A stretch of DNA of 64,000 nucleotides from Trichoplax sp. H2 (taxonomy: Eukaryota): assembly GCA_003344405.1 (NCBI GenBank), contig NOWV01000010.1, forward strand, positions 62,001-126,000, read 5' to 3'. A program made the translations under genes and the position numbers. Positions 11,788 to 62,782 of the stretch are shown here, in pieces (positions within the stretch are counted from its first letter, which is position 1; the number at the start of each line of letters is the position of its first letter). The notes under the pieces were generated by a model. It did not search any database. It saw only the letters and a list, made by a program, of their open reading frames with translations, and had not been told where the DNA came from.

Positions 11788-12095
11788 TGTACTGTACTGT
11801 ACAGTACTGTACACTGTATGGTACAGCATGCATACCGAAAACATACTGTACAGCACAGTAATCACACTTGGTCCGTTGTAGAATGTGGAGTACAGTACCG
11901 TAATTATGGACATACTGTACTGTACAGTGTACAGTACAGTATGTATCGTTTATGGTGAACTGTACAGTACTGTACTGTACAGTAAAGTTACTGAATTGCT
12001 TTACTCTTTTTTTACTACAGTACAGTATGTTTTGTTACGGTACTAAAATTTCAGAAGGTTTGTACTGTACCGTAGTGTACAGTACTGTACAGTAC
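11788..12095. repeat. TACAG/CTGTA palindromic simple-repeat array upstream of SMIM7
   Basis: Dense tactgtacagta / tacagtac pentamer units. Confidence 0.9.
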
Positions 12096-12202
12096 GAGCA
12101 CTGAGTATTTACTGTTCAGCATTAACTTTTAAATTTTAGTTTAATTTCACTGATGCTTGCTTGAGAAAATTCTTGTTCTAATACAGTAGTAAATATTTCT
12201 TT

Positions 12203-13055
12203 ATGGCGTTGGTGTCAGATATCATAATTATAGGGTAATGCTTGTAAATTATTACTTACAATTAAATCTGTTAATACTCTGTAATTTCAAGTTTCAAACG
12301 TTTCGTACAGTATTTAATGTAGTCAACTTAGTATCGTTTAATGTGTTTTACTATCTGACAATATCGTGCTTGTTGATATTTTAAATACTGTGTACAGCAT
12401 ATATATTTATTAATTATGCTGCAGATGTTTGATTTTTGGTATTTAATATACTGTAGTAATTAGCTGCTCTATTACTTAAGATTATTATTCTTTCTTTTAA
12501 TTTTCCGAATGATAGGACGCTATTGATAAACGCAGGGGCTGTCCTGAACTATAGACTGTAAGACTTCTTTAATATTCATAGTTTTTTACTGAAAAAATGA
12601 TAGACACGACACGTCCTATAAATAATTATTATCCATGTACCGTTATTTATAAAAGATTTAATATTGTAATCTCTACACTACTACCACTGTATAGGTCACT
12701 TGTTGACATAGTAAGACACATAAAATCTTTACGGCGATGATACTTACGGTATCCATCAAGTCTGCTTAAACCCCTTTTATCTTAACTATCATTTGCGTAG
12801 AGATGGTGTAGCGGGTGCACATTACGAAAGTCAAGGAACTGTAGGTTTGTCGTAAAGTTTAGGAAGTGTTGCAACCAAATATCCTTTCACAGTTGTAAGG
12901 TTTGATGTTCGGTATCTGTGTATTACATTAATTAATTTTCCGTCTTTGTGCTGTTTTAAGGCGAAAAGATTAGAGAATTTCTACAGAGTTTGTGTTATTT
13001 TCGAATTTTCATCGGAATGTGGAATATTCTTGTAATACTTGGAATGATCATGTAG
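12203..13055 (+). CDS. SMIM7: Small integral membrane protein 7 (SMIM7/C19orf42 family); 3' end uncertain
   Basis: Spliced mini-exons [69 protein letters not shown].. match the SMIM7 signature GTLLxNAGAVLN and IREFLxSLxYFRIFI. Absent from the ORF track. It ends either at TAG 13053-13055 or in an unidentified last exon. Confidence 0.88.
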
Positions 13056-13961
13056 GTAGCTTTTCTCTGAGATAATTAATATTCGTGCTAATGTTTAATC
13101 ATGCAATGTTACATTATTAGATTTTTCAGTGCTTGAAGATCTTTGCAACAGGGTACGAGTATCATTGGTTATCTGATTCTGCGATTGAATTATCGGATGA
13201 AAATGTTTAGCTATGGTTAGCATGGTAAAATAGAATCGAACCCTACCAGTGGACTGGGCATGGATTATATGGCTGAATGCTTACAACATATTAGCCTGTA
13301 GTCAAGTAAATTAATGAATAAGCAGTTTAACATGTGTACGATATATACGAAAAACTTTATAGACGTTTCTTTAATGCGTAGTAGTATAGTTCAACGCAAA
13401 TAATGATCATTTGTATAGTTGATAATTGTTTATGTACAGAGCCATAATGTTAGGGTAAATCGTAATTATTTATTTTTATTATTTCTATCGCTTGGCAGTC
13501 TTATAATTGTATATCTGTTAAAATGGGCAAGATATGATCATACTTGTGCAAATTACTATCAGAATAATTAATTATAATAGAGATTTGGAAATTAGTTTAT
13601 GAGACTGTTTGAATATGTATGCATCAATAATAAACTGATTTCTTGCTGAGTATGAGGATGTGATATCAGTATTTTATTCTTTAGCTTGTATACAGTTTAT
13701 GTGATGACCATATAAATGCATGCAGGAGTATTAGACTTCGATTTTTTAACAAGTAATTTCAAATACTAATGAGTACCATAAGCGAATTTACCCTCCTCGA
13801 CCATTTATGTCTAAAATTTCTTAAAAATTCATTTAACTATTGTTTTGCCACTCTGAATTGTAGTAAGTAACAATGTTACAATCGGAAAGCTGAGTAATCC
13901 TTTCAAATTATATTTATTCACTATTTACAATATCCTATTAAAGAATCGTAGACATCATTCG

Positions 13962-16900
13962 TTATCTTGCACAAGGAAAAGGGTTCAAAAGGGATTTGCT
14001 CTCCTATTATGGAAAAAGATACGTCTTAGATAGGAATGTTGTATAAATAAATCTAAAGGTGGATTCCATTTGACTTATGCTATATATTTTATACATGAAT
14101 TAACCTTGCTAGCTTTAGGCTTGCAGAAAACATTCCAAAACCTGAGAGTTTCATCGCCAGCACCGGTCACAATAGATTCTCCTTCAGGTGAAACGGACTA
14201 ATAATGTATATAATCAATATGATAAGCAAACATGTTATCAATGGTGAACTAATTATTATTAATTGCACGAGACTTATTGACATATTGACATATTTTCGGT
14301 TTAAGGCATGATATGTTGACTAATTAATAATAGATCATACCAAGTAGAGGACGCGATATGTGTGCCCTGATAGTTCAGCTACTTTGGAGAGAGACGGGTA
14401 TTTCCAAATAACGATATGATTCTTAGAGTAGCCATGTGTACTTACCTGTAAAGCGAATTTACAGGTAGTTATATATGATTGCTGACAACTAATTACATTA
14501 GTTGCTATATAGTACATCATAAATTTTACTGCTTGAAATACTCACCAACTCGTTTGTATACTTTGACCAAGCTAAATTGCATACTTGCGAGCCGGTATCA
14601 ATGCAATTTATTGATTGGTTGGTCAAAATATTTCTAAATCTGATGCAACGATCAGCCGTTCCACCCCCCGAGGCTAAAAGACCATGCTTCAGATATTAAA
14701 AAAATTTCTGACTTAAAATTGTTATTACGAACCCAAATGTTATGGCAAATGTTAACTTTAAAAAGGTCTCGTTTTAAGGTAGTGTAGCCGAATTAATGAA
14801 TCATAAAAATTCGTTTTCCTAACTTGCGGACATACATAAATTTTCGCAAAATCTCATTGCAGAAGAGCATTTAAATTAGCAAAGACTTCAATATAGCTTG
14901 CAGTTAAAAATTCACGTACAGATGAACAACGAATGCTGATAGTTATATTTAGTAATGTAGACTCCTCGACATCCTGCTTATATCTCGAACCTGATGAGGT
15001 GACCATGCGATTGCTTTTACGGCAGCTTCATGGTCAGCGTACGTTTGGATAGGAGTCTCGGCAGACAAGTTCCATATAAATAGCTAACAGAAAATGTACT
15101 GATAATTATAATCGTATTCGTGATCGTAATATTTATTACATAAATTAAAATTTAAAACCTTATTATCATTTCCTCCAGACGCTAAATATTGTCGGTCAGA
15201 CGACCACTTTAAACCACAAACCTTCGAATAAGTGAGTTATCATTATTAGATTAACATTTAGGAAGACGGAATATTGCAAGAGATGGTGTTACTGCAAGAT
15301 GAAGTGTAGTACTGCACCTCCTGTTTATGAGCCCTTAATTTTCGTGTAATTGAACATGGCGTTCTAGATCAATCAAATAAAGTTGTAATGATTCTTGCTA
15401 GCGCTAATGCCATAAACACCTAGAGTAACCTCTTTAAAATTTGGATATTATTTATTGATATAGGAAATAAGTAGTAACCTCAGATCGCGCTGGAAGATAC
15501 ATTTATCCCGGCTACCGGAGTATAGCAAATCATTATTCCATGCGAGTGTGCCTGGAATATAAATTGAATCCCGAATTTTAGCCGAATCTATTTACAAATT
15601 CAACCAAAAGGCAATATAAATAGCATATATGCCATATTTTAGAGATCAACGGACCAACTCGTGCAGTATGGCCATCTAGAAGAGCAATAAGTCTGGAGAC
15701 AGTTACGTCCCATATATGAATGTAGCCTCGCTGAGTTCCTACGGCAATGTGATTGCCCTGTAAAGTAAAACCATGCGTGCTAGTTCAATTAGTTTAAATC
15801 ACTATTAAAAGAAATTAGTGTATACTTTTTCAGTCCAGGAAACAGACGTAACCGAATCTCCTTCACTTTGGAAATCACATAACTTAGTAACCTAAATGAA
15901 AAACATTTCATTGTAAATAACACCCCGTTAATCGAAACAATGTTTTGGGGTTAAATTCAGTTGAATTTTACATTAACAACATTAATAAAAATTGTAGAGT
16001 CGGTTACCTGCCCGTTATTTGCACTCCATAAATACACACACGTTCCGAGACCAACACTCAACACGTTTTGTGGCGACCAGTCAACTAAATTTAAATAGAA
16101 GTCATCCTGAAAGAGTAGAGGCGGAAAGTTATTGTTTGGTTTTTCCGGGTATCTTTAACTCAAAGTAACCTGCAAATCTGGTGCATCCAAAACTTTATAC
16201 GGTGCCTTCGGTATTTTTCTAGGTGGCTATATCCGTACCAAAAAAATGCAGCTTAACGACTCATTGTGAAATAGGATCATAGGCTAAACTATTGAGCGCT
16301 ATCGACCATGTAAAGATAATTTCGGTCTAACCTTAGTTGCTGAACACAGCAGACTTTGACTATATAGGTAGATAATGAGCAATACAACTTAAAATTTAAA
16401 CTTGAAGCATAAACGTAATAGGAATTGTACAGTACCTATCGATTCCCAGAGGCGACATTGCATAACCAGCAATAAGCTTTTTTGAGTCATCAAATAATTT
16501 TCTTTTAGCAGGGGATTGATACTATCATAAACAGGTTATCAGGTATGTCGCCATTATTAAATTAAAAGATTATCAAAATCTCATGTTGCCGTTAGATAAA
16601 GGTACTCACTTCGAAAAGGTTGCAACTGTTTTCTCTTAAAGTGCTGATCTCTCTCGGTGTTGTTTGCTTCGGTTAAGAGATGTTTTAATAACATATTAAA
16701 AAATAAGCCAAAGCAAACCTGCAAGTTCGCTAGTAAACCATGTTATGTCTTACCTCCGTTCTTGTTCCTAACACTTCATTCGCTATTACGCAATTGTACA
16801 TCTGATTTTCTTTACATTGAATATACGTTTAAGGAAATCCGTGAGTAGATACATGTGATTCAAGGTTTAGTGCATTAAATACGTTTCTGTTTACTATTCA

Positions 16901-17702
16901 AGAAGGCTGCCCTCGCAATAGTAACATTAAGCTTTGCTTAAGCCGAGTAAAGCGCAGAGTTACAAGAAACCACGGATCTCTAGGGACCCGTATAAAAAAC
17001 TGATATAGCATTTACATTCGCACGTTCTCTCAGGAATATTATATTATTTACGGACCGTAGTTATAAACATCATCAAAACCACAAACCTTTACTAGATTGC
17101 GCGTTGCCATCTGAGAATACTGTATTATTTCTTTTTTGGGATTCCTTTGACTGTATTTAGTTAGTAATGAAAATACCAAAGACAGATTGAAATTCCGTTA
17201 AAATTAAAATTATTTAAATTGGTAAATACACCAGTAATAGCTATGAAAAGCTGTTTATTGTTGAAGTGGATGAAGAAAGGTACAAGGTACAATTATACTG
17301 ATACTGCACATCGCATAGCATATTAAACAGACAGTGATTTCACCTGCAATAAATTAAATTTTCCGTTCCAGTCGGATGATGATCGATCAGGAATGAAGCT
17401 GGGTACCCATGGGAATCATGAGATGGTTAACAAGACAAGTTTGTTAGCATTTTTGTGAAATCTTAAGACGAAATATATATATTACAATGCATAGTATACC
17501 GATTACAACACTTTTCTTTGGAAGGCAGTGGTGACATCATCGTGTGCTCTGCTCCGACCTGAAAGGTTAATTAATCAGATAGAAGTCATTAGTAAAGATG
17601 TGCGCGTCAATGAAAATGGTAACTGAAGTTTTAGTCCAGGTTAGAGAATACCAAAGTAGAAGATGGACTATTCATCAAACGCTTATTGTAGTTGGTATTC
17701 AT
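13962..17702 (-). CDS. FZR1: Fizzy-related / Cdh1, APC/C WD40 co-activator (multi-exon)
   Basis: Start MNTNYNKRLM; RFIPDR C-box region; RKIPKAPYKVLDAPDLQ|DDFYLNLVDWSPQNVLSVGLGTCVYLWSA; ASGGGTADRCIRF; STHGYSKNHIVIWKYPSL; SPEGESIVTGAGDETLRFWNVF; last exon 14003-13962 ESKSLLNPFPCAR*. Confidence 0.95.
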
Positions 17703-19468
17703 GTCGACAGCCAGATAGCATATAATCTAGAAAAATTGAAAATCTTTTACGAATTTCATAGCGAAAATACTATATTATAATAAAGTTGCAGCAATTTCAC
17801 TGATATAACTGTCATAACAGATTTGAATTTGTGCTCTACAGGAAATCGGATTACTGGTTAAAAAGCAAACTGTAGGCTTATCTCATGTAATCTTCGATAA
17901 TTTTTATTACTGCTTTCCATGGGAGCGAGATTTGAAATTTGGACGAGAGTGTTCTGGCATTTGGTGATTATTGTCGAACGTTTGCGCGGGCACGGGCGCC
18001 ATAATTAGCACTAATGTCAGTCTCTGATACATACTATCGGACAGTACGTTAACTTTGTGGCTAGTTAATGGTGTTACATGCATTTTTATTTTAAAGTTAA
18101 AAGTATTGAAGAGTGAGTACGTCAGAGTTTAACAGTTCTTTTGAGTGGCATTAGAGTACTTGATGGTAGTTAAATCAATGAACAAGCAATTGTAAATACA
18201 AACGTATTATATAACCAGAAACAGGATAACGGGCTGATTCGTTGAGTAGTAATAATTTAAGATTATAATAGATATGTGGTGTTATAGTCGGATATGAAAA
18301 GATAATAGAATTCCGTACAGTATTTATACATCTTTTTAAGACATTAATCAATTTATTAAGTTCGATGAAGTTTCAGACAACAGTTTGTACATAATCTCAT
18401 CCGTTAATTGAGCATTATATCGAGTTAAGCTGACAGCGAGGGAATTACGAAGTGGGTCATGAAATTGCCTTGATCTAACTGCACGTATTGTTTTTAGGGG
18501 CTTGAAAGAAATCCTGATCTTCTCACAAAGTGATTTCGTTAAATATTTAATGCTTGGCCTTCACATTTGGAACTAGTACATTTGCAATATACTAAACACT
18601 GCACCGAATACCTACGATCGAAATTTTATAATTACGAGTGTACAACTGTAGTACCGTATAAGTCTTTGCAATTAATTGCGATTATAGTATAGCAATCTTT
18701 AGAAGGCTTATAATGCATAAATAAAGGAAAAGACATTACGAAATTTATTGTCCAATGAACACCATTGCAGAAAACTAAGCCAAGAATCTCAGGTTTTAAG
18801 TATTCATAGGTACAATTGAACAGGACTTATAAGGCTTTGATTAAGTTAAGAGTTCACCTGTAAAGCTGATATGGTAATTCATTACGAGTACAGTATGGAT
18901 ATTATTATTGTATTGGGGAATTTTATTATTCAAGATACGCATAAATGTTTAGTTTTGAAGGCTATCTACAGTTAGAATGGTATCTTACGCTAGCGACGTT
19001 TGGACCTTGAGAAATTTAAAAAGATGAACCCACACACTGATACAGAGTGTAACTCTGTATAGTGAAATCAAATTGATCCCACTACAACATTATTAATTAA
19101 AACATCAAGAACATACTGTGTGCACTATACGTGCAAAGCCGGTTGATTAAGTACAGTACCGTACTGAATTCAGCCGATTCATGTTAAAATAAAATATTTT
19201 AAATGCTATAAGACCGTTACTATAAAGCGCAGGATTTTAAAATAACTTAATTACCTCTACTTACGCGATGTAACCAGCGTAGACAGTGTACTTTCACAGT
19301 TTAGATGAATTGAGAAGCTGCCGAGAAATTCAATTAAACTACCCAAAGTCTGAAATAGTTTTTAATTCTGTATTTGCAGTTAAATAACAGTCAATCAAAA
19401 TTCCGCAGCTACCGCTCGGGTCTTAAAGCTTTTCAAATCTATTGCCGCGGATCTTTACTCCTCGCTAC

Positions 19469-20005
19469 AGTACCGCATACACTATAGTACAGTATACTGT
19501 ATAGTACAGTACAGTATATCGTGCCAATGTTGCCAACCTCTACTGTACCGTACTGTACGCTTCAAGATAACTTACTGTACAGTATTGTACTGTACAGTAT
19601 GCAGACGGCTGATCCTGATTTTTCTAAATTAACAGTACTGTACAGTACTGTACTGTACTGTATGTACTGTACAATAGTACATTGAATCTTATTATTGGTT
19701 ACTAAAGCTCTTCTTAGAAACAGCTATATAAGATCGTCAATGTTATTCAAAATAGTACTAGTAGTAGAAAACCGAGTCAGAAGATCCATACTAAGCAGTC
19801 ATTTTCGATATTGACGGTTTCGTTTGGTGAAAGAAGTCCGTCCGTCTACAGTATATTAGAGACCTTTACTAAATCTACAGTACTGTACGGTACTGTACAG
19901 TACAATATACTGTACATGTACAGTATACAGTATTGTACAGTACAGTACATTATGATAGTACTACGGTACAGTGTACAGTACAGTACAGTACAGTACAGTA
20001 TACCA
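19469..20005. repeat. TACAG/CTGTA arrays in the divergent FZR1 / receptor-PTP intergenic region
   Basis: Two blocks (~19469-19680 and ~19875-20005) of tacagtac repeats, followed by an AAT microsatellite at ~20010-20045. Confidence 0.9.
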
Positions 20006-20102
20006 TAGCAGTAATAATAAAGTAATAATAATAATAATAATAATTAATTATAATGTAATTTTATGCACGCACTATATCTTTATATCCTCCACTTCGGCGA
20101 AG

Positions 20103-23100
20103 ATGTCAAGGATTTTAAATATTGGCTTTGGTTTAGCCTTTATTGTAATCGTGTCCATTACAGGTTTGTTAATAATTATTATCGCTAATATGGCTGAGAT
20201 GGAATCGTAGACGTCTAGCTATTCATATTTCGGTGTGGATTTCATTTGATAAATAACCAGTTTAAACCGGCAAATGTGCAGGAGTGCAGGTGTTTTTTTT
20301 TAGCTATGACTGAACCTGCAAATGCTGAAGATATCGTCTTTTCAGTTTCTTAAAACTTACTTAATTAAAAATCCAGGCTAAAAGGCTTAGTCAACGTTCG
20401 AATATGCAACACTGGTGTTGATTAACACCGTAGCTCGGAGACGCTTATTACGACATTGAGTAATATGGTAGACGTAGTCGTTGATTAGTGGGATAAGACA
20501 TTTTGTTTTGATAGTTAATTGAACTTACGCATACTGTAAACGAATTTGCACATAATATTAGTATCAATAATAACGCCATATAGTGAAATGCAAGAAAAAG
20601 TCGTGGCTGTATTATTGACAATGAATATCGGTATACAGAATGAAACATTTTACGGGAAGTTGATCTAATTTTACTACCTATAGCTAATAACAGCCTGTAC
20701 ACGAGCCGTCCAGTAAATGAAGGATACAGCACTGTAGTAGCACTGTTCATGATTTCTGGACTTTAAACATTACAGTCTATTTATGCCTGTAGGCAAGTTA
20801 TTTTGTGCGCTTATACTCTTCGGATGATCGCCTATCGTCGTAAGCTACTAATTTTGAATCTCTGAACGCTGCACTTCTGCAAGTACGATCTTACTGTGCC
20901 GACAGATTCATGTTGATCCTTGTGCTGTACTAGTAGCTAGTTGTCAAATGACTATACCGATTAATTTTGATGATAGTTTTTCAATCTGCGGGCAAGCACT
21001 GTACCGTACCGGGGACAACGAGTGAAATACGTGGAGACGCGGAGTAGTGTTTGAGTAGATTATGTAGTTATGAATGACTGGATGAGTGGTCTGTACTGTA
21101 AGTAAGGTAGTACTGTACAGTATGTGCTCTTAATATAACTGCAAATGGAGTAGCGCCATAATTTACGTAATTTTACGTATCAAGTAAAGCACAATATTTA
21201 TCCATCCCCTACGACTTACTGCTGATAGGTTCAAGTCATTGACTACCAAAAAAGACCTTTTTCTAGCAGTCCTGGTTAATCCTGCTGTCCCACTGGTAAT
21301 TGTGGTGTAATTATTGTAAAGTAGATTCTTCTTATCCTGGACAAACTGCGAGCTATATTATACGTGTATGTTCCTTATATCAGCATTAACAGTAAATTAA
21401 TCATGAAGTTTTCTGTACTGTAGTATTCATACTAAAGTATAATGTAACGCTATCCTTCGCACAGTAGGCGACGGTGCTGCTTCTAGTTGATCCCAATATA
21501 TTTCATAACGTATGTTATATCGCACGGGGTTAGACCAGCGCTGGTGAATTGCTTTGCGTTGAATAATGTCGAAGAACGTTGATTTTCCCTTGATACTCTT
21601 TGAATTTATATGTTCTGTAGCTGCATCATATCTTCAATTAACCTAAATATAAATTTGCAGAACTGTATTAGTCCTTTTTTGCGCTTGGATGCAGCAGATA
21701 ATATTTCCGAAGTAAATAATACGCGATCTGGAAAATCAGTTATGATCTTACTGACAACTAATATCCCTTTTGGTTTTATTATAATTATTCATCAGGACAT
21801 TGTACAAGAGGTCTCTCTTTGTATTGTTCTTATCGCCTGCCGATGGGCTTTGATGAGGATGACTTTTACTCTATTAGATGCTGGACTAACAATGATAATA
21901 CAAAGTTTACTTGGTCTAGAGTTTCATCTCGTGTATCGCCTTTTCATGTCAGCACGGATCAGTATCAGATACAGAATAAGTCCGGTGAATCAACATTAAT
22001 CTTGCCGTGGAATTCTCTAAACGATTTTTATCGTTACGCTGGTGTATATGAATGCCAAGCAACAAGCACAGCCAGTAATTCTCCCCAAAGGAAGACTTTA
22101 TGGGTTGGAGTTACTCATTCTGCATGTAAGGGTATATTTAATTTCGACCTTTTAATTAATGCATTAACGATTTCAGTTGTGATATATTTAGATCTTAGAA
22201 GCCGTTAACACCTCTGTTTTTAATTATTTATTTAGCTCCTGTACAGCCATCAATTATTTCACAAGTTGGCTATGTTCGCGATACCTTAGTGTTAACCACG
22301 TTATCGAATAATGTCGTAACTTGTAATTATATATGGTACCACAACGGCTCACGTTATACCCGATGTGACAATGCTTGCAACTGTAGTTTTGATAGCTTGA
22401 GATTACAAGATGCCGGAGTTTATGAAGTGATTTATCCGGCATCTGACAAATCTAATATTACTGGTGCTTTTATGACATTAACTGTTTTAGGTAAGTTACG
22501 CGTACAGTACATCGGAAATATATACCTTGGAATCTCTGCTCTTCTGGTATTAGTTTATTTTATTCTTTACAGAGAAAAAATGTAGCCAAAATCAAAACTG
22601 CCTCAACGGAGCCATCTGCATGACAGACAATAGTTGCGGTTGCCTTCCAGGCTTCAATGGTACTTCGTGCCAGACAGGTTAACTGTAAATCTACAAATGT
22701 CATTCATTCTGTTATCACATGGTTAAATTGCAACTAGATACGCTTAAAGCTTATCATTAAAGGACAATCTCTATTATTATTAGCTTGCAGTCTTCCGTTT
22801 CGTTGTGGGCCTGCATGCCAATTTGCTTGTCAGCCAGAAAGTGTGTACTGCAGTTCCGATATGTATGGGTGTATGTGTCCATCTGGAGTAACTGGCATTA
22901 GCTGTAAAACTGGTAGGTTTGAGGTTTTTTGAAACTGCCTGTAGAGAAACAGGCGGTATTAAATAAATTATGTAATACTCATTTCCTGTCGTAAGAATGA
23001 AGGTTATATTTTAATATTAGATTCGTGTCCTGCTGACAACTATGGACCAAATTGTCAACTGAAATGTAATGGGTGTAATAATCATGGAAGCTGTCAGTCA

Positions 23101-26100
23101 AAGACGGGTTGTTTGTGCCAGTCTGGATACTCTGGAATCTACTGTGAAGAAGGTTATTATTATTTTCTGTGTTAATAAAAAAATTACTGCTGCGAAGACT
23201 GTTTCTTCGATTTCTAAATCCTAATTAATTTAAACAGTTGCAGGCGGTTCCGTAGTTGTTATAATTGGTGTCGTTGTCGCAATTATTGCTGCTGTTAGTT
23301 TAGGAGTGATTGCTTACATTTGGTACAGGTATCAAACGTAGTAGATTACAATACTGAAATTGTTTATCAACTGTTTCCAGAAACCAAATTAATGCTAATT
23401 TATTTTGCAGCCGTCGCCGCGCTAGAGCTTTAGCTAATATCAAATCACCAGATCCTGTCGTCATTGTTGATGCATCTGGTGATAATCCATCGTCCTTAGA
23501 TACTAATTTAATCCGGTCACGATTAGGACAGTATAAATACGTAGTATCCAAAGGTAACTGTTACACGGAGAAAAGTTGCATAATTTGGTCGATACGGCTT
23601 ACAGTAATACCTCTATGTCGCTTGTACATTTTAGCGCAAAAGGCATCATTGGTTCAAAATATTAAGATCCCGACTAAACCTATAATTGTTAAGGACCTGC
23701 TTGATCGTATTAACGCTTTGAAGGAAGATTCGGCTCTTGCTTTAAAGGAATTTGAGGTGAGTAAATTTGGAACGGTTGCTTTGATATAAAGTGGCATGAC
23801 TGCATTCATTCTCCTTGCTCCTATAGTCCATCCCTCCTTGTAAAGAGACCCATGCTATTGCAGACATGAAAGGGAACGCGAAAAAGAATCGTTCTCAAAG
23901 TGTTATTAGTTGTACGTTTATTAATTATATAATATACAGTAAACGTCCAATTTTTTATTTACGATATCGGTGATCCTATTCATCAGATTAAATGATTTAT
24001 TTCCTAGATGATCATTCAATCGTCACAATCGGCGATGGAGGAGTCAATTCGTATATTAATGCTTCTCATGTTCATGTTAGTAAAGATTCCTTATAATGAT
24101 TCATAGTAGGGAACAGAAAGCTTTTTCTAATGCTTTACTGATTTAACAGGGATACATGAAACCTAATGGTTACATAGTAACTCAAGGTAATTGCAATTTA
24201 TCCTGGCCGCTAAAATTAAATTGCATATATGGCTTGAAGATAATTTCGAGTTATTAATCAGTTAATCGTAAAGATGTGTAGATTGTTAGATAATATTTCC
24301 CAGGATTAGCTAAATTTAGAACTGGCTATGAAATTAGGTCCTCTAAAGTCAACATGCAATGATTTCTGGACCATGGTTTGGGAAAAGGAAACCTGTGCAA
24401 TAGTGATGCTCACAGAGTTATCTGAGAAGGACGAGGTTAATTATTCAAAAGGATTTGATTCTTAGGTTTATAAATTTAGGCCAAATTTGCCTTACGTGTA
24501 CCTGTTAAATTTTTTCAGCAATTATGTTACAAGTACTGGCCAGAAGAAAAGGATACTTATGGTAATGTATGTGTCACTCTAGAGAACGTAAGCAAGAGGA
24601 GCTGTTATACAGTCAGAACTTTTCATTTGCAAAAGGTAGTGTATAACCTTTAATACTGTTACGTGACATAAACTTTCTCTAAATTAGTATTTGCTCCAAA
24701 ACTATGCAGGTTGGAGAAGTAGAAAAGCAAGAAGTGAAACAGTTTCACTTCACTGCTTGGCCCCACGGTGGTATACCTGAATCCAGTACAGGGCTTTTTA
24801 GATTTAGGTCACTGGTACATGCTTTTAACCCCTCCGATGCTGGTCCTATCGTTATTCATAGCAGGTATGGCATATTACCTATACGCCTTTTGATCTTATC
24901 TTAAGAATGGTGATTTTCATTTATAGTGAAGGAAGTAGTCGTTGTGCTATGTTTGTTGCACTCGATATCAATCTTGACCGCGCCCGCAAGCAAGGTGATA
25001 TTGATGTTTTAGAAAACGTTGGTTTGATGTCGCATCATCGAAAAAACATTTTAGTCCGTGTTGTAAGTGACGTTGTTCTTCATAGATAGCTTTGTCTGAA
25101 CACCACCATGATCATTTGTATTTAAGGCCAGTAAGAATTTTTGTTTCTGTATTGATCTTTCATTTCAGAATGAATACTTATTTGTATACGAAGCAATACT
25201 TGATGCTCTAATACGAGGCAATACGCAAATGTCGCTTAAGAATTTGCAAACCTTCGTAAGCCGGGCAGATACATCCGAATCGGGCTCCAAAAACAATCCT
25301 TATACCATCATGTTTCAGGTAACATACTAAATGAATTAGATTAGTATCGAGATTGCTATTAGTATATGCGAAATCAGCCGATGAATATTTAAGCTACGTT
25401 TCGTTTTGGTAAAGTGCTTACGATGTCAGGAGGGAGAACATGATGATTTCGCTGGAGCTTCGTTATCTGCAAATGAAAACAAAAATCGTTTTCCTGATAT
25501 CTTAGCTAGTAAAGTCCTTAAGTCTAATATTCTAAAATAGGCAGTTTTCATTTATATTTATCGTTGTATGAAAGTGTATCAGCGTTAATAATTATATATT
25601 TTATGACTCAGGGGATAAATATAGGGTTAAACTTTCAAGCAGTGACAGCTCAGACTATATAAATGCTGTATTTATTGACGTAAGTTTTGTGATGATGCTG
25701 TACTATGCAACATTTATTATGCTGCTAGTTGATGTGATGTAATATTAGCAAAACACTTATTACAGAGTTACTTAAGAGCAAGAGAATTTATTGTCACCCA
25801 ATATCCACTACCGAATACTATAAATGATTTTTGGAAATTAATCATGGAACAGAACGTTGCGTGTGTTGTTACCTTGGGATCATTTAGTAATCATCCGGTA
25901 AACTTATTTGATTTATGTTTTATTGAAAATACATGTAGATAGCTAATCATTTTTATAACATTGGTGCTTCTATAGCCTTATTGGTGGCCTTCTAATAAGA
26001 AGCACGACGTATACGATAACATTAAGGTTGAGATTTTGGAAGTAGCGACGGTAGATGACCTAACTATAAGACAATTAAAGGCAACAGAGAAGGTTTAGTA

Positions 26101-26751
26101 ATTCCATTTACCAGTGATTCGATTTATTCATGCGTTTATTCATTACGATGTTATCTGATTATCTTTTCTTAGAATCATTCTAAAACTAATATAATGAGCC
26201 AATTTCAACTCAGTGGTTGGGAAGATGAGGATAAAGCGCCAGCCCAAGCTTCTACGATTATTAATTTAGTAAATCGTGTGCAAGAATGTATAAAAACAGT
26301 TCGCGAACCAGGACCTATTGTTGTTCAATGCCTGTACGTTAATATTACAAGCACAATACATTTTTACATTAATTTGATGTTGAGCTATAGGTAATGCTGT
26401 CTTAGTTTCATTTTATTGTTTATAATTATAATTCGCGTATGTCATTAACAGTAATGGCAGAGGACAAAGTGGAACTTTCTGCACGATTTACTCTGCGTTG
26501 AATACGGCGATTGAAGAAAAGGCTGTTGATATTTATTCTGATGTCCTTTCAATGAGAGTAGCTAGACGAGGATTAGTTCAGTCAGAAGTAAGAACTTATG
26601 CTGCGTCTTTTGAAGAGCTGATTTATCAGCCGAACTATTTTCAGTTGCTGATAAATTTCCATTTTGAAATGAATTAAATTTATTTTAGGAGCAGTTACGA
26701 TTCTGTTTTGAAGTTGTCGTGAAATACACTCAAGATACTGGATTGCTGTAG
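20103..26751 (+). CDS. Receptor-type protein tyrosine phosphatase-like protein: signal peptide, 2 Ig, 3 EGF (Tie-like), TM, tandem PTP D1-D2 (both degenerate)
   Basis: Exon 1 20103-20163 (signal [21 protein letters not shown]); Ig exons ([20 protein letters not shown]); three Cys-rich EGF exons ~22573-23151; [29 protein letters not shown] motifs: [38 protein letters not shown]2 [36 protein letters not shown]. Stop TAG 26749-26751. Confidence 0.92.
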
Positions 26752-27594
26752 CGCGTTTAGGATAATAATGAAGTTTTTGATTTTATGAATAACCAGCTAT
26801 AATAGTTAAGATAACCATATCGTGTTTTATCAGTAAAATCGTCACAGAAAACATTTTTAAGTGCTGCTGCTTACGCTTAATTATTTCGTGCAAAAATTCT
26901 TGTGCAGCATATGTGTTATATAGGTAATGTCAAAGGCAGGTGTTTCGGTTAGGTTTATATATCTTCGGCGGATAACGCATCGTCCGGCGATTACGAAAAT
27001 TTAATTGGTGTTTTACTGTAGCACAGCTCTTTGCTCTTTTTTGAGTTTATTTGTGACCTACATGTATTGTGTATCACTATAATACATAGAAGAATAACTT
27101 TACTTATATCGTCGTAAGTTGAAATGTTAGCGGAAATACAGGAACAGAATTGTTTCTATATATCTCATACAATGACATTAATCTCGATGATAGTACATAA
27201 ATTTTAAATTAAGATCCAATATAAGGATTAAATATAGTAATTGATTAATTAAAATTGATGCTATGGATTGAAAACAGTCAGATAAGCCCATGCCGTTCAA
27301 GTTTATAAGTTATATTTTTTATTTCGTACTTAAAATGCCAATATCTAAAGATAAATTAATGTTGTAATTTCATATTGCCTAGTTATGCAAATATATTACA
27401 AATTCACTTATATTATCTGAATAAGTTGTGGTGTTTTTAATATACTAAATGATCATAATTATTAGCATTTTTCTATTGTCTGTAAAAATTAATTGTACTA
27501 TACAATCTATATGTATGCAACCGTTTTATTTTTGGTCAATTTTTAAAGTTAATTTTTGGTAATTGAATCAACGATTTTTCGTGAACTTCGGAAA

Positions 27595-28944
27595 TTATTG
27601 TTTTCTCCATGCGATATCCATGTACCGAGTTATTTCTGTGTTTTGTCGTGGATGATGAATGCGTTTGTCTTTGGAATGTATCTGAAGCAATGATTTAATG
27701 TCAGGTTAATAAAGGCTGCCATATTATATCGCAGTATCTATCTGCATTGACAAACTAAAATAATATTACCAGAGGTTCGGTGTACCATCCTATTTCTTGA
27801 GCTTCAGTTTGTGGTTCCATGTATTTATGGCTGGGTGTATCATGCGAATGCTTCACTTTTTCGAGAAAATTTGCTATATTGTGTAGTTAACGCAGTAGAA
27901 TAAAGATTTATGATTCATATGATATACGGTACAGTTTGATGGCTTAATTGGTAATTGTTATGGAAAATAAAGCTTATATGTAATAGTTAAAAATCTGAAA
28001 GTTGTAGATTTACTTTACGCTTTAAAATTATGCAACACAGACGCTAACTGGAATCATCACAAATACTTTACATTTGTCATGAACATCGAGTCTACTTAAA
28101 GTGCCATCCTTTCAAATTTTATCGAACAGCTTTCAGTGGGAATAGAATTACTGAATTAGGTCTTAAGTACTGTAACATCAACATTGAAAATAAAATTATA
28201 TATTGCGTTATTAACTTATTATGTGTTTATGACTTTACTCCGACAGCACGAAAACTAGTGCCTTAGTTGCATTTTGTGTTTGTCTATGCTTACATACAAT
28301 GCATAGTCCTGTACATATACATATAGATTTCTGCAATACATTTTGCACTATCCATTGCATTGGTTACATTCTACTGTTTAGTTATATATGTTATATATTT
28401 TAAAAATAAATCCCAACTTCTGCATTACATTTTAAAACTCAAAGTGTAATTTGAGCTAACTCATAAGTAGGACGAATCTATAAAAACATAACAGTCACTT
28501 ACAGTCTGTATTGCTATCGTTGAAGTCTTCATTTTCATTGACTTTGCTCGTTAGTGTATAAACTATATTAGGATTAAAATGGTGACGTTAGGATTTAATT
28601 ATAATATTGCTTCTACCTTGGAGTGTTATATGGCTTTAAAAAAAATATCGGGAAGCGACGATAATATGATTGTCTATATTATACTCTTGTGATAGAAATA
28701 CAGAGATGCTTTTCACTAATAAATAAATCGTATTGTAAACAGTTTTTCCGTAATAAGATCAACCATGATTTATTGCCTTACGTTTGTTATAAGGGTTTAC
28801 ATTAAAGGTAGTATAGATCCTTTGCTGGCGTTGCTCTTTTTTGATAGTTTCGCAAAGGATATCATTCTGATGAACGAAGTTCAGTGGTTCCGTGTCTATC
28901 TGTTTCTTCTTGTTAACCGTTGTCCGATTCTTAGTGTCAGCCAT
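27595..28944 (-). CDS. CFAP144: Cilia- and flagella-associated protein 144 (FAM183 family), 4 exons
   Basis: Exon 1 28944-28782 ..FVHQNDILCETIKKEQRQQRIYTTFNVNPYNK; later exons LYTLTSK.., PSHKYMEPQTEAQEIGWYTEPL, IHSKDKRIHHPRQNTEITRYMDIAWRKQ*. These match FAM183 motifs VHQNxIL, P..KY..PQTE.QEIGW and EITxY. Confidence 0.9.
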
Positions 28945-28950
28945 GATCTC

Positions 28951-28964: not shown

Positions 28965-28967
28965 GAT

Positions 28968-29240
28968 GTACTGTGCAGTAAGCAATATTTATATATTACA
29001 GAGTATACGTACAGTATAGTACAGTACATTCATTAGGACTCCACCGGCTAAAGTATTGAGATTGCGTAGTTATCTTACCCTGCATAGAGTCTGATCAGAG
29101 GTAAATCCCGTACATTTACTGCATTTACAGAGTGAAACTAATGCTGATGTTTCTTTACATACGAGCATGAAGAATTATATTATCATACAGTGTAATAAAT
29201 AAAGCACCACAATATAGTAATATAGTACTGTACAGTAGTA
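28968..29240. repeat. Short TACAG/CTGTA clusters in the CFAP144 / GNAT-PARP divergent promoter
   Basis: gtacagtatagtacagtac (~29009-29027) and agtactgtacagta (~29224-29237); weaker than the other arrays. Confidence 0.6.
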
Positions 29241-40455: not shown

Positions 40456-40622
40456 GTACAGTACAGTGTACAGTACAGTGTACAGTACACGAGGACTTGT
40501 AAAGTACTGTACAGTACAGTATAACAATGTTACAGTACGGTACAGAGCAGCTCTGTATTGGCAGGTACTGTACTGTACTGTACTGTACGAATACTTACCA
40601 AGTTACAGTACTTAGTACTGTA
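40456..40622. repeat. TACAG/CTGTA array upstream of U6
   Basis: gtacagtacagtgtacagtacagtgtacag.. and gtactgtactgtactgtactgtac. Confidence 0.9.
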
Positions 40623-40682
40623 AAAAATGCAAATAAGCACATATTAAAGCGCCTATAATAGAAGTAAAAGATTCTTAAGTTA

Positions 40683-40694: not shown

Positions 40695-40714
40695 TACGTG
40701 AACTTTAACCTAAC

Positions 40715-40736
40715 GTATTACCTTGTGTAATACATT

Positions 40737-40771
<35 letters not shown>

Positions 40772-54599: not shown

Positions 54600-55832
54600 C
54601 TACCACGTTCTGTTAGCCAGGACAGTATCTTTAAGACATCTTAGGCAACGAGCCGACTTGCTCTTTAATGAAACAGCTAGTATAATAGAATTCTTATTGC
54701 TCGACCTGAATATTTCTTCAATCAGCTGTCTAGCTAAGACCACATACGTAGGCTAAAGCAGGTATAAAAATACAGTAGATTGGTACCAGCTGAGAAGGCT
54801 AATATCGTATGCGAAATCTTATCAAACAGTGCTTAACTATTTTCTGATTATATATAACATATATATAAATTATACAGTAGGCTGATAATGCTACGCTTAT
54901 TCATTCCTCCGTATCCTATCAATCTCACCTCTTCTATCCCAAATAAAACTTTACAAGTATACACATTAAGTGTATTATTATTACTATTATTATTATTATC
55001 TACGCAACTAGCACCAATACCATGAGAATGTCCAACAGCTTCCGCTTTTATCTAGAGGTAAATAAAAAATTTACACAGTCCTTCTTTAAAATTACATTAA
55101 CAAATTGTGAAATTACCGCTGGCTGTGAAGCAATGCCTTTAAAAAAATTGCCTCCACTTTTAGAAAGATTAGATAATTACAATCGTGCAGTATCTCAACT
55201 ATAAATCAATACAAGCCGCCATCTTACGGGGGCTTCTAAGAATTTTCTCTTAAAATTCTCTGATATAGTACACTTTGCATGAAGCTTTCTGATATTGTGT
55301 ATGGGTGAATACAAAGCACAGATCAGCAGCAACATGCAATGCTAGTGACAACAACACATCTGAAGATTCAGATAGCACAGGGCAGTAATAAATTTTTTCG
55401 TGTAAGGAGATTCTTACCATTGTACCAATTCTTCCGTACTGTGTTACATAGATGAAGATCTGGTTTCCAAAATTGGAGCATACGATCGCTGTTGGTGTAC
55501 CATCCACATTGACAAACGACTAAATACAATCATATAATCCTTATTATAATTATTTATCCACATCGGAGTAATCATTTACAGCCATATTATAACTACAGTA
55601 AATGCGTTATAAGAATATTGATAATTAATTTACAGTTAGTTTGGTCTGTGTTTAAGGTATTAAAGCAATCAATAATAATTAATACATAAACACATGTATA
55701 ATATTATAAACACGGAATAGACCCATACTCACAACTATAGCATCTACGAGAGCAGGACTAATGAATTAATTAATTAAAAAGGATACAGCAGTGAAAATAG
55801 TCCCTCACCTTTTTCGACTGTACCGTCACCAT
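54600..55832 (-). CDS. PSMG3: Proteasome assembly chaperone 3 (PAC3)
   Basis: MVTVQSKK|SFVNVDGTPTAIVCSNFGNQIFIYVTQYGRIGTM..VYTCKVLFGIEE|PTYVVLARQL..SIILAVSLK..NRTW*. One internal junction (55418 to ~55050) is unresolved. Confidence 0.9.
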
Positions 55833-55999
55833 CGCCCTGCTTGCCAAATACTGTATATAGAAATCCCCAACTGTAAAATACCCTTGATGTCGTTCACAAC
55901 TTGCTTGCATCAACGTTTAGCGCATTTAAGAATGTACAGTACATATTATACTGTATTTCATTCAGCAGCAAGAATGATTCCGTGTGATACAACTTGGGT

Positions 56000-56345
56000 T
56001 ACCGTACTGTACTGTACGTAGCTTCAACTTACTGTGTACTGTACACTGTACAGTACCGTAAATCATGTTTACCACTCGTGATAGTTTATTGATGACAGCG
56101 TACTGTACTCAGTACACTGCACAGTATAGTAATTTCACTACTGTAATAAGATTCTTGTCCACTTGTACAGTACTGTACAGTACAACACAGTACAGTACAG
56201 TACAGTCGTGTGTGCACTACAGACTGTGCAGTACAGTACAGTATAGTGTACTGTACTGTACAATGTACTGTACTGTACAGTACTAATCTTTGACTATCCC
56301 TCCTACAGAACAGTATAAATTACAGGTTCTCTTTACTGTGTACTG
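56000..56345. repeat. TACAG/CTGTA array in the divergent PSMG3 / TMEM38 promoter
   Basis: Dense tactgtacagta units between two head-to-head ATGs (55832 and 56380). Confidence 0.9.
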
Positions 56346-56379
56346 AACTTTACTGTTCTGAACGTAATTTCACACAAAC

Positions 56380-59085: not shown

Positions 59086-60663
59086 AACTACATTTTACGT
59101 AGTCAATTTTAATGCTATTAGAGCTTAAAGTAATGTTTCCCAAACTTACAATCATGCCTTTCGTATTCGCACGTAAAATGCCAATAATTTAAGAGCGCGA
59201 TCCGCATTAAAATCGGCGTAAGGTTTTATGAAGCATTCATTGGCATCAAAGCTATCGGCAACTGGATCATGCAATCCATAACTAAAACCTTTTAATTTTT
59301 TATTTATTTTTATCGTATATCTATGTTACATGATTGTAATTGTAATTAAAAGGGAAGAATTTAAATGTGCGTTTTAGTGCCTTTCCTCAGATCTTACTTT
59401 GCAATAGTATGTTATGCGAAGTACCTTTCAGCTAACACTGTCGTACCATAGTCAGCAATTCATTTTAACTAACCAAATATTAGATAACGTGCTAGCAGCA
59501 TTATAGCTCACAAGCGCTTCATGGCGCAACCACAAAGCCATCTGTCCAACTCGTAATCAAGGTGACGTTACTTTAACGTTGGAAAAGAAGCACCTATTGT
59601 AATGTACAGTATAGATCTGGATACCTCTTTAACTGCATTGCGAATAATGAGCTACAGTATATCTATCCTAAATTATATATGGTAAAAATCAATGATAATA
59701 ATTACGCGATGACACTGATAATTATAACAAACCATTCAGCTTTTATCATAAGAGTGTAACTATTTTTGTTCTACATCGTAATGTATCCTTCGAAATTATT
59801 TTATAGAGCACAACTACGTTCCTCACCAAATATAGTATAACGTAAATACGTAAATAAAATAAATTACGTTTTAGTTTTTGCCTTCACAATCTCATGTACA
59901 TATTCAGAAGCAAAGCATACCTCATATTATGCACGTTGGCAAGTAATAAGAATTCTGAAATCATGAAATATCAAGCTTTGCACTGATACAGTTGCTTACG
60001 CCGTTATGAATACCTCTTATTTCCTGCTGTATATGCTCAGGCAAAAGATTTCTCTCCAAATACAAAAACTTTGCAAAACTGGTTTGTAGCAAGGTTGCAG
60101 CAGCTGTAAGAATAACAGTGACTACTAACAATAGTAACCATTTCTGAATAGACTGTATGTTGTGGCTTTATTGCCTTCACAATGTTATTTCCTTTATTAC
60201 GACTGTTAACTAAACAATCGATTACTAATCAAGAGCCATTCCTTCTCATAAAGCAAAATCAAACTAATCCCATCTAGTATGATAGCGTAACCATAAGCAA
60301 TATCACCTAAGTAAAGTCCTATATAGACTATTCATAATACTAACTGTACAAACAGTAGTCAAATTGCATAATACATCTTGAAAAATTAATTTTACCAGAA
60401 AGAATTCTTGGACATAGAACATGCTATGAATCATTCATTTAATACTCCACAAGCACAGAAGAAATAAATTTCTAGCATTATATACAGCATGATTTTATAT
60501 GCAGCAAAATATTAAAACTAGTAGACGCCGTGGCTGATTGTTTAAAAAGGATTTGCCTCCTATTAATTAAGATGATACAGAGGTGATCCCAGAACACATT
60601 TTATTGTTAAAATGTATAATACTTATGGGGCTCTATTATACAGCTAGGCTCTAATCATAGCTA

Positions 60664-62381
60664 TTAACGTTTCTGCAATCTTCTTCTCTTGCCCGGACGT
60701 TTATTACCGGCCTGATTGATTTTCATGCAAGCATATACGTATATAAAAACACAAACAAGGATAAAAAAATCAATTAACTGTAAGAAACTTCTACCACTAA
60801 ATATGGTCGTTTGCTGCTATCAATATAATTTTCCTTACACTACTGCGCTTCTTTCGAGGTTTACCATGAATCCCAGAGTCAAAAAATGACGTATTCGCGC
60901 TTGCACTAGTATTTTTTTTTATATTCTTTTTCTTTCTACCATACCCATATTTCATATCTTTCCTTCCCTTATTTGACAAACGCGGAGACCTGTATGCAGT
61001 ACGTTCTCAATCAGTTAATTTACAAACATGCCGTGCAATACCATTGTAAAGTAAGATATTTATATTTAAATAAAAGTACCTAGATTTATTTACGTAGTTA
61101 TCTACCGATTTCTGCGTTTTCATCTCAACTAAATTCGCACCTAACAGAATATGGACATAATACCGTATATTATGATTATGAATATAATATTTTAAGTATA
61201 ATAGGTAAATCATATACTGTATCACTGCGCGTATATAGAAGAAAAGAATCACCTTTATTTAGTTTCCCATTGGATTTTCCCGATTGGAGATTTTTTCTGT
61301 TAGATATTACCTCTTTTTCTACCTAAATGAGCGATTTAAGAGTAACGCACTTAAGACTACTGCATCTATAGTTATAATTAATCGCACTCCAACTATGTCC
61401 ATCCATACTACATATTTTAGTATGCCATATATCACATAGGGCCATGCAAACAAACCTTTTTCCCAAATTTTTTAATGAACTGGATTCTTTTCGCTTTTTC
61501 AAAAGATTTAATATTTTCTTGTTTTTCCAATAACTTACGGCGTATCTAAGAGCCCATAATATGTATATTCAGAGAAATTAAATTTACCTTAAAATGATAA
61601 AATCTCTTTTACATTAAAATAGTGAATTAATTGAGAAATGCAAGCTTAGATTTTAGTATACTGTCGTGTGATTACATTACACACTACATACTGTACTGCA
61701 CAGTAGCTACCCAATTTTACATCAGGTTTTCCCTTTATGAATACGATATATTACACGATCATACAACTAACAGACCTTCTGCATATGAATATCAGACTTT
61801 ACCATCTCCGCAAAATAGTCAGCTGGACGCTTTGTTATAACATTTTCCGAATGCAGTTTGGGGAGAGCTTCAATCACAGCTTTCTGAGCTTGCCTATAAC
61901 TGCAGATAAATAACAGTACTAACACTCTACTATGGGACTGTCTCCACACAATTATTCCTACTTTAAATAACATAAATTCTAATAAAACTTCTTACAATGA
62001 CGCTTCCCTCTGGAAATCATCATGAATTCTAGCTACATTATCATCACTAAAAGTTTTATCCACAGCTACTTCCTTTGTAGCATGCAATAGATCCTGAGCT
62101 AAGCAGTAACTTAGAGTTACATCAATCCTTTCCAACCAATTAACACCATCGAAAATATCGGAGAGTCTCCGACGCAAGCCTTCCTACGTTTCCGTAAATA
62201 AAATAGCAATCGAAAAATTATACGAACAGTACAAGTACAGCATAACTTTCGTAGATTATACATGATATACTCCATGTATATGATCCACTTTCACATCATT
62301 ACACAGATGTTCCACTACCAAAAGTTAGAAATTACTGACCGTATCGTTATGCTGTGTTCGATGTTCCGCAGCAACATCCAT
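60664..62381 (-). CDS. EBNA1BP2: rRNA-processing protein EBP2
   Basis: WLERIDVT, DDFQREASF|YRQAQKAV, KRPADYFAEMVKSDIHMQK, KKFGKKV, KDMKYGYGRKKK, C-terminal KRPGKRRRLQKR*. Confidence 0.94.
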
Positions 62382-62567
62382 TTTAAGACTGTTACGTGGC
62401 TAACGCTCTAGATTGGTCTTGTACAAACTACATATATATATGTACTGTATACAGTATATATATCTATATACATGAACTATCACCGGCGAACAGCAAGCAC
62501 TGACTAAGCCCAGTATAATCCAGTAAAGAACTGTACTATAGTTTTACTTTTATCAAAAAATATAAAT

Positions 62568-62782
62568 TTTGTACTTGTACTTGTACTGTACAGTACAGTT
62601 CTGTAGTGTACAGTACTGTATTTTATTTTGAAATTTTACACATGGTTTTACTGTACAGTACTGTACTGTACCAGGACTGTACTGTACTGTACAGTACTAC
62701 TGTATGGACTTGTAAAGACTACCGTGGTATTTACTGTAGAAGTCCCTGACTGTACACTGTACAGTACACTACAGTACAGTAA
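62568..62782. repeat. TACAG/CTGTA array in the divergent EBP2 / WDR36 promoter
   Basis: tactgtacagtacag units between head-to-head ATGs 62381 and 63168. Confidence 0.9.

Follow-up and report, generated by a model that had tools for sequence, protein, structure and literature searches.

The fine structure of repeat arrays in front of Trichoplax genes suggests transposon scars accumulated in open promoter DNA

The window, by which we mean the whole 64,000-nt stretch of Trichoplax DNA analysed here, contains a U6 snRNA gene, a series of protein-coding genes and dense clusters of the pentamer TACAG or its complement CTGTA (Table 1). A sequence-only reading of this DNA had followed one apparently orphan cluster, array 1, to the gene SMIM7. 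A spliced gene does begin 108 bp downstream, with introns at 12233-12515 and 12557-12801 in contigs of run X12, presumed to be RNA; it has no Pfam match, and its identity as SMIM7 is presumed from that first label. The same reading proposed a non-coding first exon for FZR1. Contigs end at 19264 and 19357, a weak hint of a probable exon there; the joint is not among the matches listed. RNA-library contigs of the RPTP transcript carry some 79 nt 5' of 21793, consistent with a first exon at about 20084-20163. Predictions from a self-trained exon finder were set aside, as many in this window fell on the wrong strand.

Table 1. Arrays, MITE features and neighbouring genes in the window. Heptamers are TA-CWG-TA.
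Feature	Position	Strand	Description
Ig-FN3 gene	ATG 8116		Pfam fn3
Array 1	11788..12095		20 heptamers; 5' of ATG 12203
Small spliced gene	12203..13056	+	ATG 12203; two introns
FZR1/CDC20-family gene	14078..19357	-	Pfam CDC20/Fizzy; candidate non-coding first exon
Array 2	19469..20005		31 heptamers in two clusters around MITE copy; between FZR1 and RPTP
Partial MITE copy	19597..19846	+	In array 2; dispersed family of ~380 bp; inverted ends bear GGACGGACAGAC; invaded by pentamer units
Unit stack inside MITE	19633..19668	+	36 bp, inserted at TA; missing from family consensus
Receptor tyrosine phosphatase gene (RPTP)	20084..27681	+	Pfam Y_phosphatase; ATG 20103
FAM183/CFAP144	ATG 28944	-	Pfam FAM183
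Weak cluster	28968..29240		4 heptamers; between FAM183/CFAP144 (-) and GNAT-PARP-like gene (+)
GNAT-PARP-like gene	ATG 29498	+	PARP match faint, E 0.11
Array 4	40456..40622		13 heptamers; 93 bp upstream of U6; ATGCAAAT octamer comes after array
U6 snRNA	40715..40822	+	RF00026, 97 bits
Array 5	47200..47426		28 heptamers; 109 bp before OGFOD1 ATG
OGFOD1	ATG 47535		Pfam 2OG-FeII/Ofd1
PSMG3-like gene	ATG 55832 or 55910	-	PAC3 match faint, E 0.2
Array 6	56000..56345		18 heptamers; between PSMG3-like gene (-) and TMEM38/TRIC (+)
TMEM38	ATG 56380	+	Pfam TRIC
EBP2	ATG 62381	-	Pfam Ebp2
Array 7	62568..62782, tail to ~62977		16 heptamers; between EBP2 (-) and WDR36 (+)
WDR36	ATG 63168	+	Pfam WDR36

TACAG and CTGTA occur at 60-123 per kb in six of the seven named arrays, at 26 per kb in 28968-29240 and at 5.0 per kb in the rest of the window. 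The best 300-bp counts are 17-31 in the six and 7 in 28968-29240; across 100 order-1 and 100 order-3 Markov simulations, the maximum 300-bp counts were 6 and 10. Six of the seven arrays are thus beyond chance, and 28968-29240, inside the order-3 range, is not. Contig depth at the arrays is meaningless because cross-mapping swamps them. Each of the six strong arrays lies no more than about 190 bp from a start codon or from U6, ending roughly 35-190 bp before the start. The claim that every large array sits 5' of a gene or between head-to-head genes holds for these six; 28968-29240, not beyond chance, lies between FAM183/CFAP144 and the GNAT-PARP-like gene. The Ig-FN3 gene was said to have no array nearby, and none lies near its ATG.

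What is the repeating unit? It had been taken to be the palindrome TACTGTACAGTA; this is only one of four two-unit words, present in 21, 12, 20 and 18 copies, and the unit is TA plus CAG or TA plus CTG. Each array is a string of TA(CAG or CTG)TA units, oriented nearly at random, and not an ordinary microsatellite. Over 67 arrays the CAG share fits 50:50 without overdispersion (chi2 72.5, df 67), and in these arrays no left-right polarity of CAG and CTG units was found; nor did the arrays show a fixed orientation or higher-order spacing. Neighbouring units share their orientation 270 times and switch it 195 times, a significant excess of like neighbours (58%, p 6e-4), and the longest same-orientation runs reach nine units. 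On the sense strand of Sm/Lsm upstream regions there are 101 CAG and 66 CTG units. Other single-base variants of the unit are rare.

Perfect palindromes of 12-22 bp do exist, and array 1 folds at -72 kcal/mol against -64 +/- 3 in re-oriented controls. Such features could be read as a selected capacity for cruciform or hairpin extrusion, a role the sequence-only reading had entertained. Yet when units are re-oriented at random, 55-96% of trials give a palindrome at least as long as the longest real one, and this is so for all seven arrays; apart from array 1, none folds clearly better than its controls. We regard this function as scarcely credible.

The arrays are not peculiar to this window. 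We counted 33 within 600 kb; a 22-mer of the ACAGT repeat occurs 706 times, its reversed control never; and 1796 heptamers in 664 kb extrapolate to about 250,000 genome-wide. A 1.9-fold enrichment of the heptamer extends beyond arrays and to the flanks of GPCR genes, but their coding sequence shows none. Of three proteins taken from this genome, two are identical to Trichoplax entries. These arrays are the published (ACAGT)n gene-proximal microsatellite of Trichoplax, whose association with promoters was already known. In the available text of Wang 2010 (PMC2871265), ACAGT makes up 78% of pentanucleotide repeats in Trichoplax adhaerens; 54% sit at most 1 kb, and 85% at most 5 kb, upstream of a gene, with enrichment near translation genes. 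A factor-binding site was proposed, and no active transposon was found. That text describes a one-strand perfect repeat with no random control, whereas we describe a two-orientation, TA-anchored chain and compare GPCRs, snRNA genes, tRNA genes and random windows. The Sm/Lsm versus GPCR controls and the arrays beside U1, U2, U6 and tRNA genes are new here.

Half of the Sm/Lsm matches (7/14) have an array upstream and none (0/14) has one downstream, against 11% of random windows; for GPCR matches the counts are 0/30 on either side (upstream comparison, Fisher p 9e-5). For tRNA genes they are 10/30 upstream and 10/30 downstream. Arrays cluster immediately upstream of snRNA genes and of Pol II genes with broad expression, and they surround tRNA genes; both their position at 5' ends and their bias to housekeeping-type genes are borne out beyond the window. 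An annotation-free orientation test, counting splice-donor words within 1.5 kb of the 33 arrays in 600 kb, gave no support to an outward bias (141 outward, 137 inward; random mean 0.50); five-letter words are probably too noisy for this purpose.

Do the arrays form a selected promoter or insulator element, with a putative placozoan protein binding the units and selection gathering them at housekeeping promoters? The Sm/Lsm bias and the short distance to starts speak for it, as does a Micro-C-trained model: in the available text on the Chimaera Hi-C model (PMC12817080, 2026), repeating ACAGT predicts T. adhaerens chromatin maps, with insulation at gene starts. That result is correlational and in silico, and the same text proposes neither an origin nor a protein; for the placozoan loop or insulation signal no architectural protein is named in the passages available, and no protein is known to bind the units. 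Moreover, the arrays lack fixed orientation, polarity and higher-order spacing, and half of the Sm/Lsm matches have no array within 1.5 kb. The presence of arrays on both sides of tRNA genes is as consistent with accumulation in accessible DNA as with a dedicated promoter code. We consider a selected element rather unlikely as the explanation; it is compatible with the origin in transposon footprints proposed below, but on this view function would explain position.

How are units gained? The MITE family of array 2 provides a reporter. We aligned 41 copies pairwise with a 297-bp core consensus and read them by hand, having dropped L189, which is identical to L190; an automated insertion classifier gave many off-diagonal false matches and was abandoned for this hand reading. 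Five-base insertions account for 17 of 102, against 5, 8 and 5 of 3, 4 and 6 bp, and none of 50 deletions is of 5 bp. Six of the 17, read manually, convert TA to TA-CWG-TA; the other 11 are not exact footprints. Tandem duplication is excluded for four of the six, two being of tandem type, and four longer insertions hold further units. In all, four five-base and four longer cases were read as gains at a TA that had been empty and had no template beside it, and one de novo unit (copy L184) has no heptamer within its 150-bp flanks. The arrays lengthen in 5-bp steps at TA dinucleotides already present, including TA sites with no neighbouring copy.

These gains bear on slippage. An ordinary (ACAGT)n microsatellite that slips and survives at promoters would account for the 58% of like neighbours, the nine-unit runs and the two tandem-type gains. 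It is very improbable, and as the sole cause largely refuted, given the non-tandem gains, the lack of overdispersion among arrays and the 42% of orientation switches where other single-base variants are rare; homogeneous tandem growth is not what we observed.

Most MITE copies lie near arrays (25/36, against 7% of random positions), and one might see in the arrays what is left of the ends of Mutator elements, which have been linked to placozoan promoter hubs. Kim et al. 2025 (PMC12221973), in the text available, place a GP1 promoter-hub motif in 'Mutator' TIRs; housekeeping promoters (the same gene class) and a transposon link are shared with our arrays, and a MITE with an ACGG-type end lies inside array 2. 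We at first equated the pentamer with the Kim 2025 motif but gave this up, since the available part of PMC12817080 lists ACGG and ACAGT separately and ties only ACGG to a transposon. Judged through that description of ACGG, the 'Mutator' loop motif probably differs from the pentamer and corresponds to the array-2 MITE end. That end bears GGACGGACAGAC and not the pentamer, and only one of the seven window arrays has this motif. We found neither the pentamer in a shared TIR nor a regular 9-bp target duplication: one of eight two-ended MITE copies has a duplication of 7-9 bp. BLAST matches between arrays are due to the pentamer or to the array-2 MITE. Descent of the arrays from Mutator ends is therefore highly unlikely.

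We put about even chances on the arrays being stacked Tc1-type excision footprints built up in accessible DNA. On this view a Tc1-type transposon that targets TA and ends in CAG...CTG would insert and duplicate TA; its excision and repair would leave three terminal bases, adding one unit. Every scar would supply a fresh TA target, so scars would stack where chromatin remains open, with slippage perhaps contributing some runs. The arrays would then record promoter accessibility, and any co-option as insulator or factor-binding DNA would be secondary. This origin is suggested by the near-random order, the MITE gains, the spacer classes, the heptamers beyond arrays and relics of the Tc1 class. 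In the arrays CAG stands in one or the other orientation (CAG or CTG) between duplicated TA dinucleotides, as such a footprint requires. The eight measured Sleeping Beauty footprints, in the text available (bioRxiv 10.1101/659086; PMC6943129), are CAG/CTG, none, C/G, CA/TG and CG. The heptamers TACAGTA and TACTGTA are identical in the two systems, and the same six minor footprints occur here as spacers. For Sleeping Beauty they are known as single scars left by an engineered transposon. In Trichoplax they come in stacks of tens, a causal element is missing, and there is the further class CAGTG/CACTG.

Between canonical units the spacers are CAG/CTG (564), none (66), C/G (44), CA/TG (27) and CG (9); CAGTG/CACTG, the second commonest, occurs 73 times, with CAGTG exceeding CTGTG 73:7. 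Among spacers of 0-2 nt, 146 of 179 match Sleeping Beauty classes, although deletions explain much of this match and only the excess of CA/TG over AG/CT (27 to 8) separates footprints from deletion.

Could repair build the arrays with no transposon at all? Polymerase-theta-type joining or template switching might mend breaks in open promoter DNA by priming on TA, using either strand of a nearby array as template for one unit, and rejoining at TA. This would account for the random orientation, the anchoring at TA, the growth in 5-bp steps and the missing active element. Two 5-bp differences at existing units (21110 and 21413, contigs of runs X1 and X4) and GGAC-N five-base expansions in one MITE copy (L195) are also in its favour, and local templating keeps a place because most MITE copies lie near arrays. 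But such repair predicts neither a Sleeping Beauty-like spacer spectrum nor the 73:7 bias, single heptamers are enriched far from arrays, the L184 unit has none nearby, and a seed is still required. We judge it unlikely.

Excision footprints face difficulties as well. Some 250,000 heptamers would demand a very large number of events, CAGTG/CACTG falls outside the eight Sleeping Beauty footprints, and slippage or deletion can also yield empty and C/G spacers. The 11 inexact five-base insertions, the excess of like-oriented neighbours and the surplus of CAG over CTG upstream of Sm/Lsm matches count against them too. There are four Tc1-class relics: L165, a DD34E gene whose frame holds an internal stop; L206, which has decayed; and two ORFs with a DNA-binding domain only. 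None of the four has matching or recognisable ends, and L165 is single-copy at its 3' end. A search of 1.05 Mb for elements bounded by TA-CAG...CTG-TA and bearing long inverted repeats yielded only two array-derived pairs and no such element, and three pogo-type DDE_1 loci and an IS630/Tc1-like ORF had no clear ends.

In the literature searched, mostly non-subscription journals, we did not find a footprint origin proposed for the ACAGT repeat. If true, it would mean that transposon activity can leave a genome-wide regulatory mark with no surviving transposon sequence, and that, in an early-branching animal, the long-term accessibility of chromatin could be read from array size, using sequence alone. 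More tentatively, some 10^5 Tc1-type excisions may have paved housekeeping, snRNA and tRNA promoters, the scars then being co-opted as the insulation or promoter-hub signal of the Hi-C models. Telling the ACAGT arrays apart from the MITE end of ACGG type also indicates which of the two co-located motifs is the one to examine as loop or insulation signal in placozoans.

CpG islands are a compositional mark of housekeeping and bidirectional promoters, and the arrays had been called their analogue. The likeness is confined to position at promoters. In composition and origin they differ: the window is not depleted of CpG (observed/expected 0.97), and the arrays, formed by unit gain, are CpG-poor (0.14-0.80).

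The TACAG/CTGTA arrays are real, and they have already been published as a promoter-associated repeat. In its accessible text, Wang et al. 2010 (PMC2871265) describes ACAGT as the dominant Trichoplax microsatellite, with 54% lying no more than 1 kb upstream of a gene and an enrichment around translation genes, and suggests that factors bind it. Of three proteins encoded in the genome studied here, two are identical to Trichoplax entries. The accessible part of a 2026 Hi-C model (Chimaera, PMC12817080) reports repeating ACAGT and ACGG motifs recovered in T. adhaerens. To this we add a housekeeping-versus-GPCR control, a dispersed element (MITE) serving as reporter of unit gain, a spacer spectrum and the separation of ACAGT from the motif of Kim et al. 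2025, which is probably of ACGG type. We found no published statement of a footprint origin for the repeat in the literature searched.

Across the window (G+C 33%; CpG o/e 0.97, that is, without CpG depletion), word density reaches 60-123 per kb in six strong peaks and 26 per kb in a cluster at 28968-29240, against 5.0 per kb in the rest of the window. The sequence-only reading had listed all seven as arrays, this cluster being marked as weak. The six strong ones, with top counts of 17-31 words per 300 bp, exceed the maxima of 100 order-1 and 100 order-3 Markov simulations (6 and 10); the weak cluster, with 7, is indistinguishable from chance under the order-3 model. The claim that arrays lie 5' of genes holds: for each strong array, the distance to the nearest ATG, or to U6, is about 190 bp or less. 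Most of the gene labels are backed by Pfam, those of PSMG3 and PARP faintly. Contigs from two RNA-type runs bear out the splicing of the small gene that follows the first array, labelled SMIM7, a name that stays unconfirmed, and put the 5' end of RPTP roughly 80 bp from the second array; for the suggested non-coding FZR1 exon at about 19264-19357 they give a hint only. Just left of the fifth array lies a degenerate tandem duplication (46015-46780; about 370 bp, 86% identical) with no Rfam match, and the few ORFs tried in 41200-46000 gave no Pfam match.

Coordinates of features in the window and in loci (L numbers) of the same genome
Feature	Location	Strand	Remarks
Strong arrays	window 11788-12095, 19469-20005, 40456-40622, 47200-47426, 56000-56345, 62568-62782
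U6	window 40715-40822		snRNA gene
MITE copies	window 19597-19846; L082, L096, L100, L149, L170-L205
DD34E Tc1 transposase gene	L165:1375-2520	-	apparent intron, one internal stop; 3' end single-copy
Tc1 DNA-binding-region-only ORFs, intact	L208:1841-2209, L207:1739-2281	-	L208 ORF has T. adhaerens cluster member
IS630/Tc1-like ORF, intact, 358 aa	L166:895-1971		identical in two Trichoplax entries

Are arrays tied to particular genes elsewhere in the genome? We required at least six TA-CWG-TA heptamers in 300 bp, no more than 1.5 kb from a match, which 11% of random windows contain. Arrays lie upstream of 7 of 14 Sm/Lsm matches and downstream of none, versus 0/30 on either side of class A GPCR matches (the 30 best out of 147). 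For these as for the other genes, a start lying over 1.5 kb away from the exon matched escapes the count. The 5' position and a preference for housekeeping-type genes hold beyond the window. For tRNA matches (the 30 best out of 50, three of them from a single tandem cluster) the figures are 10/30 upstream and 10/30 downstream. Upstream of U2 there are 15 heptamers in 361 bp, and upstream of U1 there are 10 in 623 bp. The octamer ATGCAAAT, which may serve as the snRNA distal element, lies upstream of U6 (40627-40634) and three times upstream of U2 (L209). Splice-site orientation around 33 arrays gave no signal (141 versus 137). Outside arrays the heptamer is 1.9-fold enriched; it is enriched in GPCR flanks too, with no enrichment in GPCR coding sequence. 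From sequence, the earlier reading proposed a promoter or regulatory function; that the arrays are a selected factor-binding or insulator element strikes us as rather unlikely.

In structure the arrays are chains of TA(CAG or CTG)TA. Adjacent units share orientation in 270 cases and switch in 195, and the CAG share over 67 arrays is a coin toss, without polarity. Palindromes arise because the chains mix CAG and CTG units in this way. Their length does not exceed that in randomly re-oriented controls, and selection for cruciforms is very improbable.

The heptamers TACAGTA and TACTGTA are also the main Sleeping Beauty footprints; the accessible reports list TACATA, TATGTA, TACGTA, TACTA, TAGTA and TATA as rarer ones (PMC6943129; bioRxiv 10.1101/659086). 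Between canonical units the commonest spacers are CAG/CTG (564), CAGTG/CACTG (73), none (66), C/G (44), CA/TG (27) and CCG/CGG (25), followed by A/T (14), CAA/TTG (13), CTA/TAG (12), CAC/GTG (11), CG (9) and AG/CT (8). Although 146 of 179 spacers of 0-2 nt fall within the Sleeping Beauty set, solely the excess of CA/TG over AG/CT (27:8) clearly tells footprints from simple deletion. The CAGTG class is commoner than its mirror CTGTG (73 versus 7), which would fit a fragment of an element's left end joined to one of its right end; it is absent from the measured Sleeping Beauty footprint classes.

A spacer inside the second array is a partial copy of the MITE, an element some 380 bp in length whose termini are CATG-like and whose long inverted ends include GGACGGACAGAC. 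Scoring 40 of 307 candidates gave 44 matches. Copies lie in array-rich DNA in 25 of 36 cases versus 7% for random positions, and one of eight two-ended copies has a 7-9 bp target duplication. By the Chimaera paper's statement, the motif in the inverted ends probably corresponds to the ACGG-type 'Mutator' motif that Kim et al. 2025 describe. In the accessible text ACGG alone, not ACAGT, is assigned to that transposon (PMC12817080), which makes decay of Mutator ends a highly doubtful source of the arrays.

Alignment of 41 copies with a 297-bp core consensus shows 102 insertions and 50 deletions; a length of 5 bp is found in 17 of the insertions and in none of the deletions. As the copies are top BLAST matches, heavily invaded ones are under-sampled. 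On hand reading, six of the 17 are TA to TA-CWG-TA gains, two of them also tandem duplications and four not (one requires a prior C-to-T change). Four other insertions carry further units: the 36-bp one in the window, two of 10 bp and one of 6 bp. Units are thus gained at unoccupied TA sites within older unique sequence, something slippage cannot do; pure slippage is therefore scarcely credible. Three copies (L193, L194, L195) contain, internally or at their ends, tandem expansions of the five-base word GGAC-N, a second repeat with 5-bp periodicity.

We give about even weight to the view that the arrays stem from many rounds in which a transposon enters accessible DNA at a TA and then excises, each scar adding a new TA target, plus some slippage. 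Placozoans reproduce asexually, and somatic scars passed on through fission would aid accumulation. TA-primed templated repair without a transposon is, in our judgement, unlikely; not every one of the alternatives excludes the others.

What speaks most against a footprint origin is the lack of a cognate element, together with the number of events required. No element with CAG...CTG ends occurs in the 1.05 Mb of genome scanned. Transposase-like genes comprise a DD34E Tc1 gene, a decayed copy, two DNA-binding-domain-only ORFs that are candidate domesticated proteins, an IS630/Tc1-like ORF whose first catalytic aspartate appears to be replaced, and three DDE_1 genes; CAG...CTG ends were found on none of the Tc1, IS630/Tc1-like or DDE_1 genes.

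Three tandem tRNA genes (L136-L138; G000:C352:19404-21362) have spacers with very large arrays, as many as 31 heptamers per 300 bp; these spacers differ among themselves by units of 5 and 10 bp. In the first RPTP intron, sequencing runs X1 and X4 show five-base differences at existing units (window 21110 and 21413); units are therefore polymorphic. Outside arrays, in 664 kb of the genome, enrichment is 5.8-fold for TACGCGTA and about 2.5-2.8-fold for TACGCATA and TACGAGTA, and one MITE copy (L200) gained TA-CGCG-TA at a TA. Another TA-targeting family may have left these as scars, or they may represent a factor motif.
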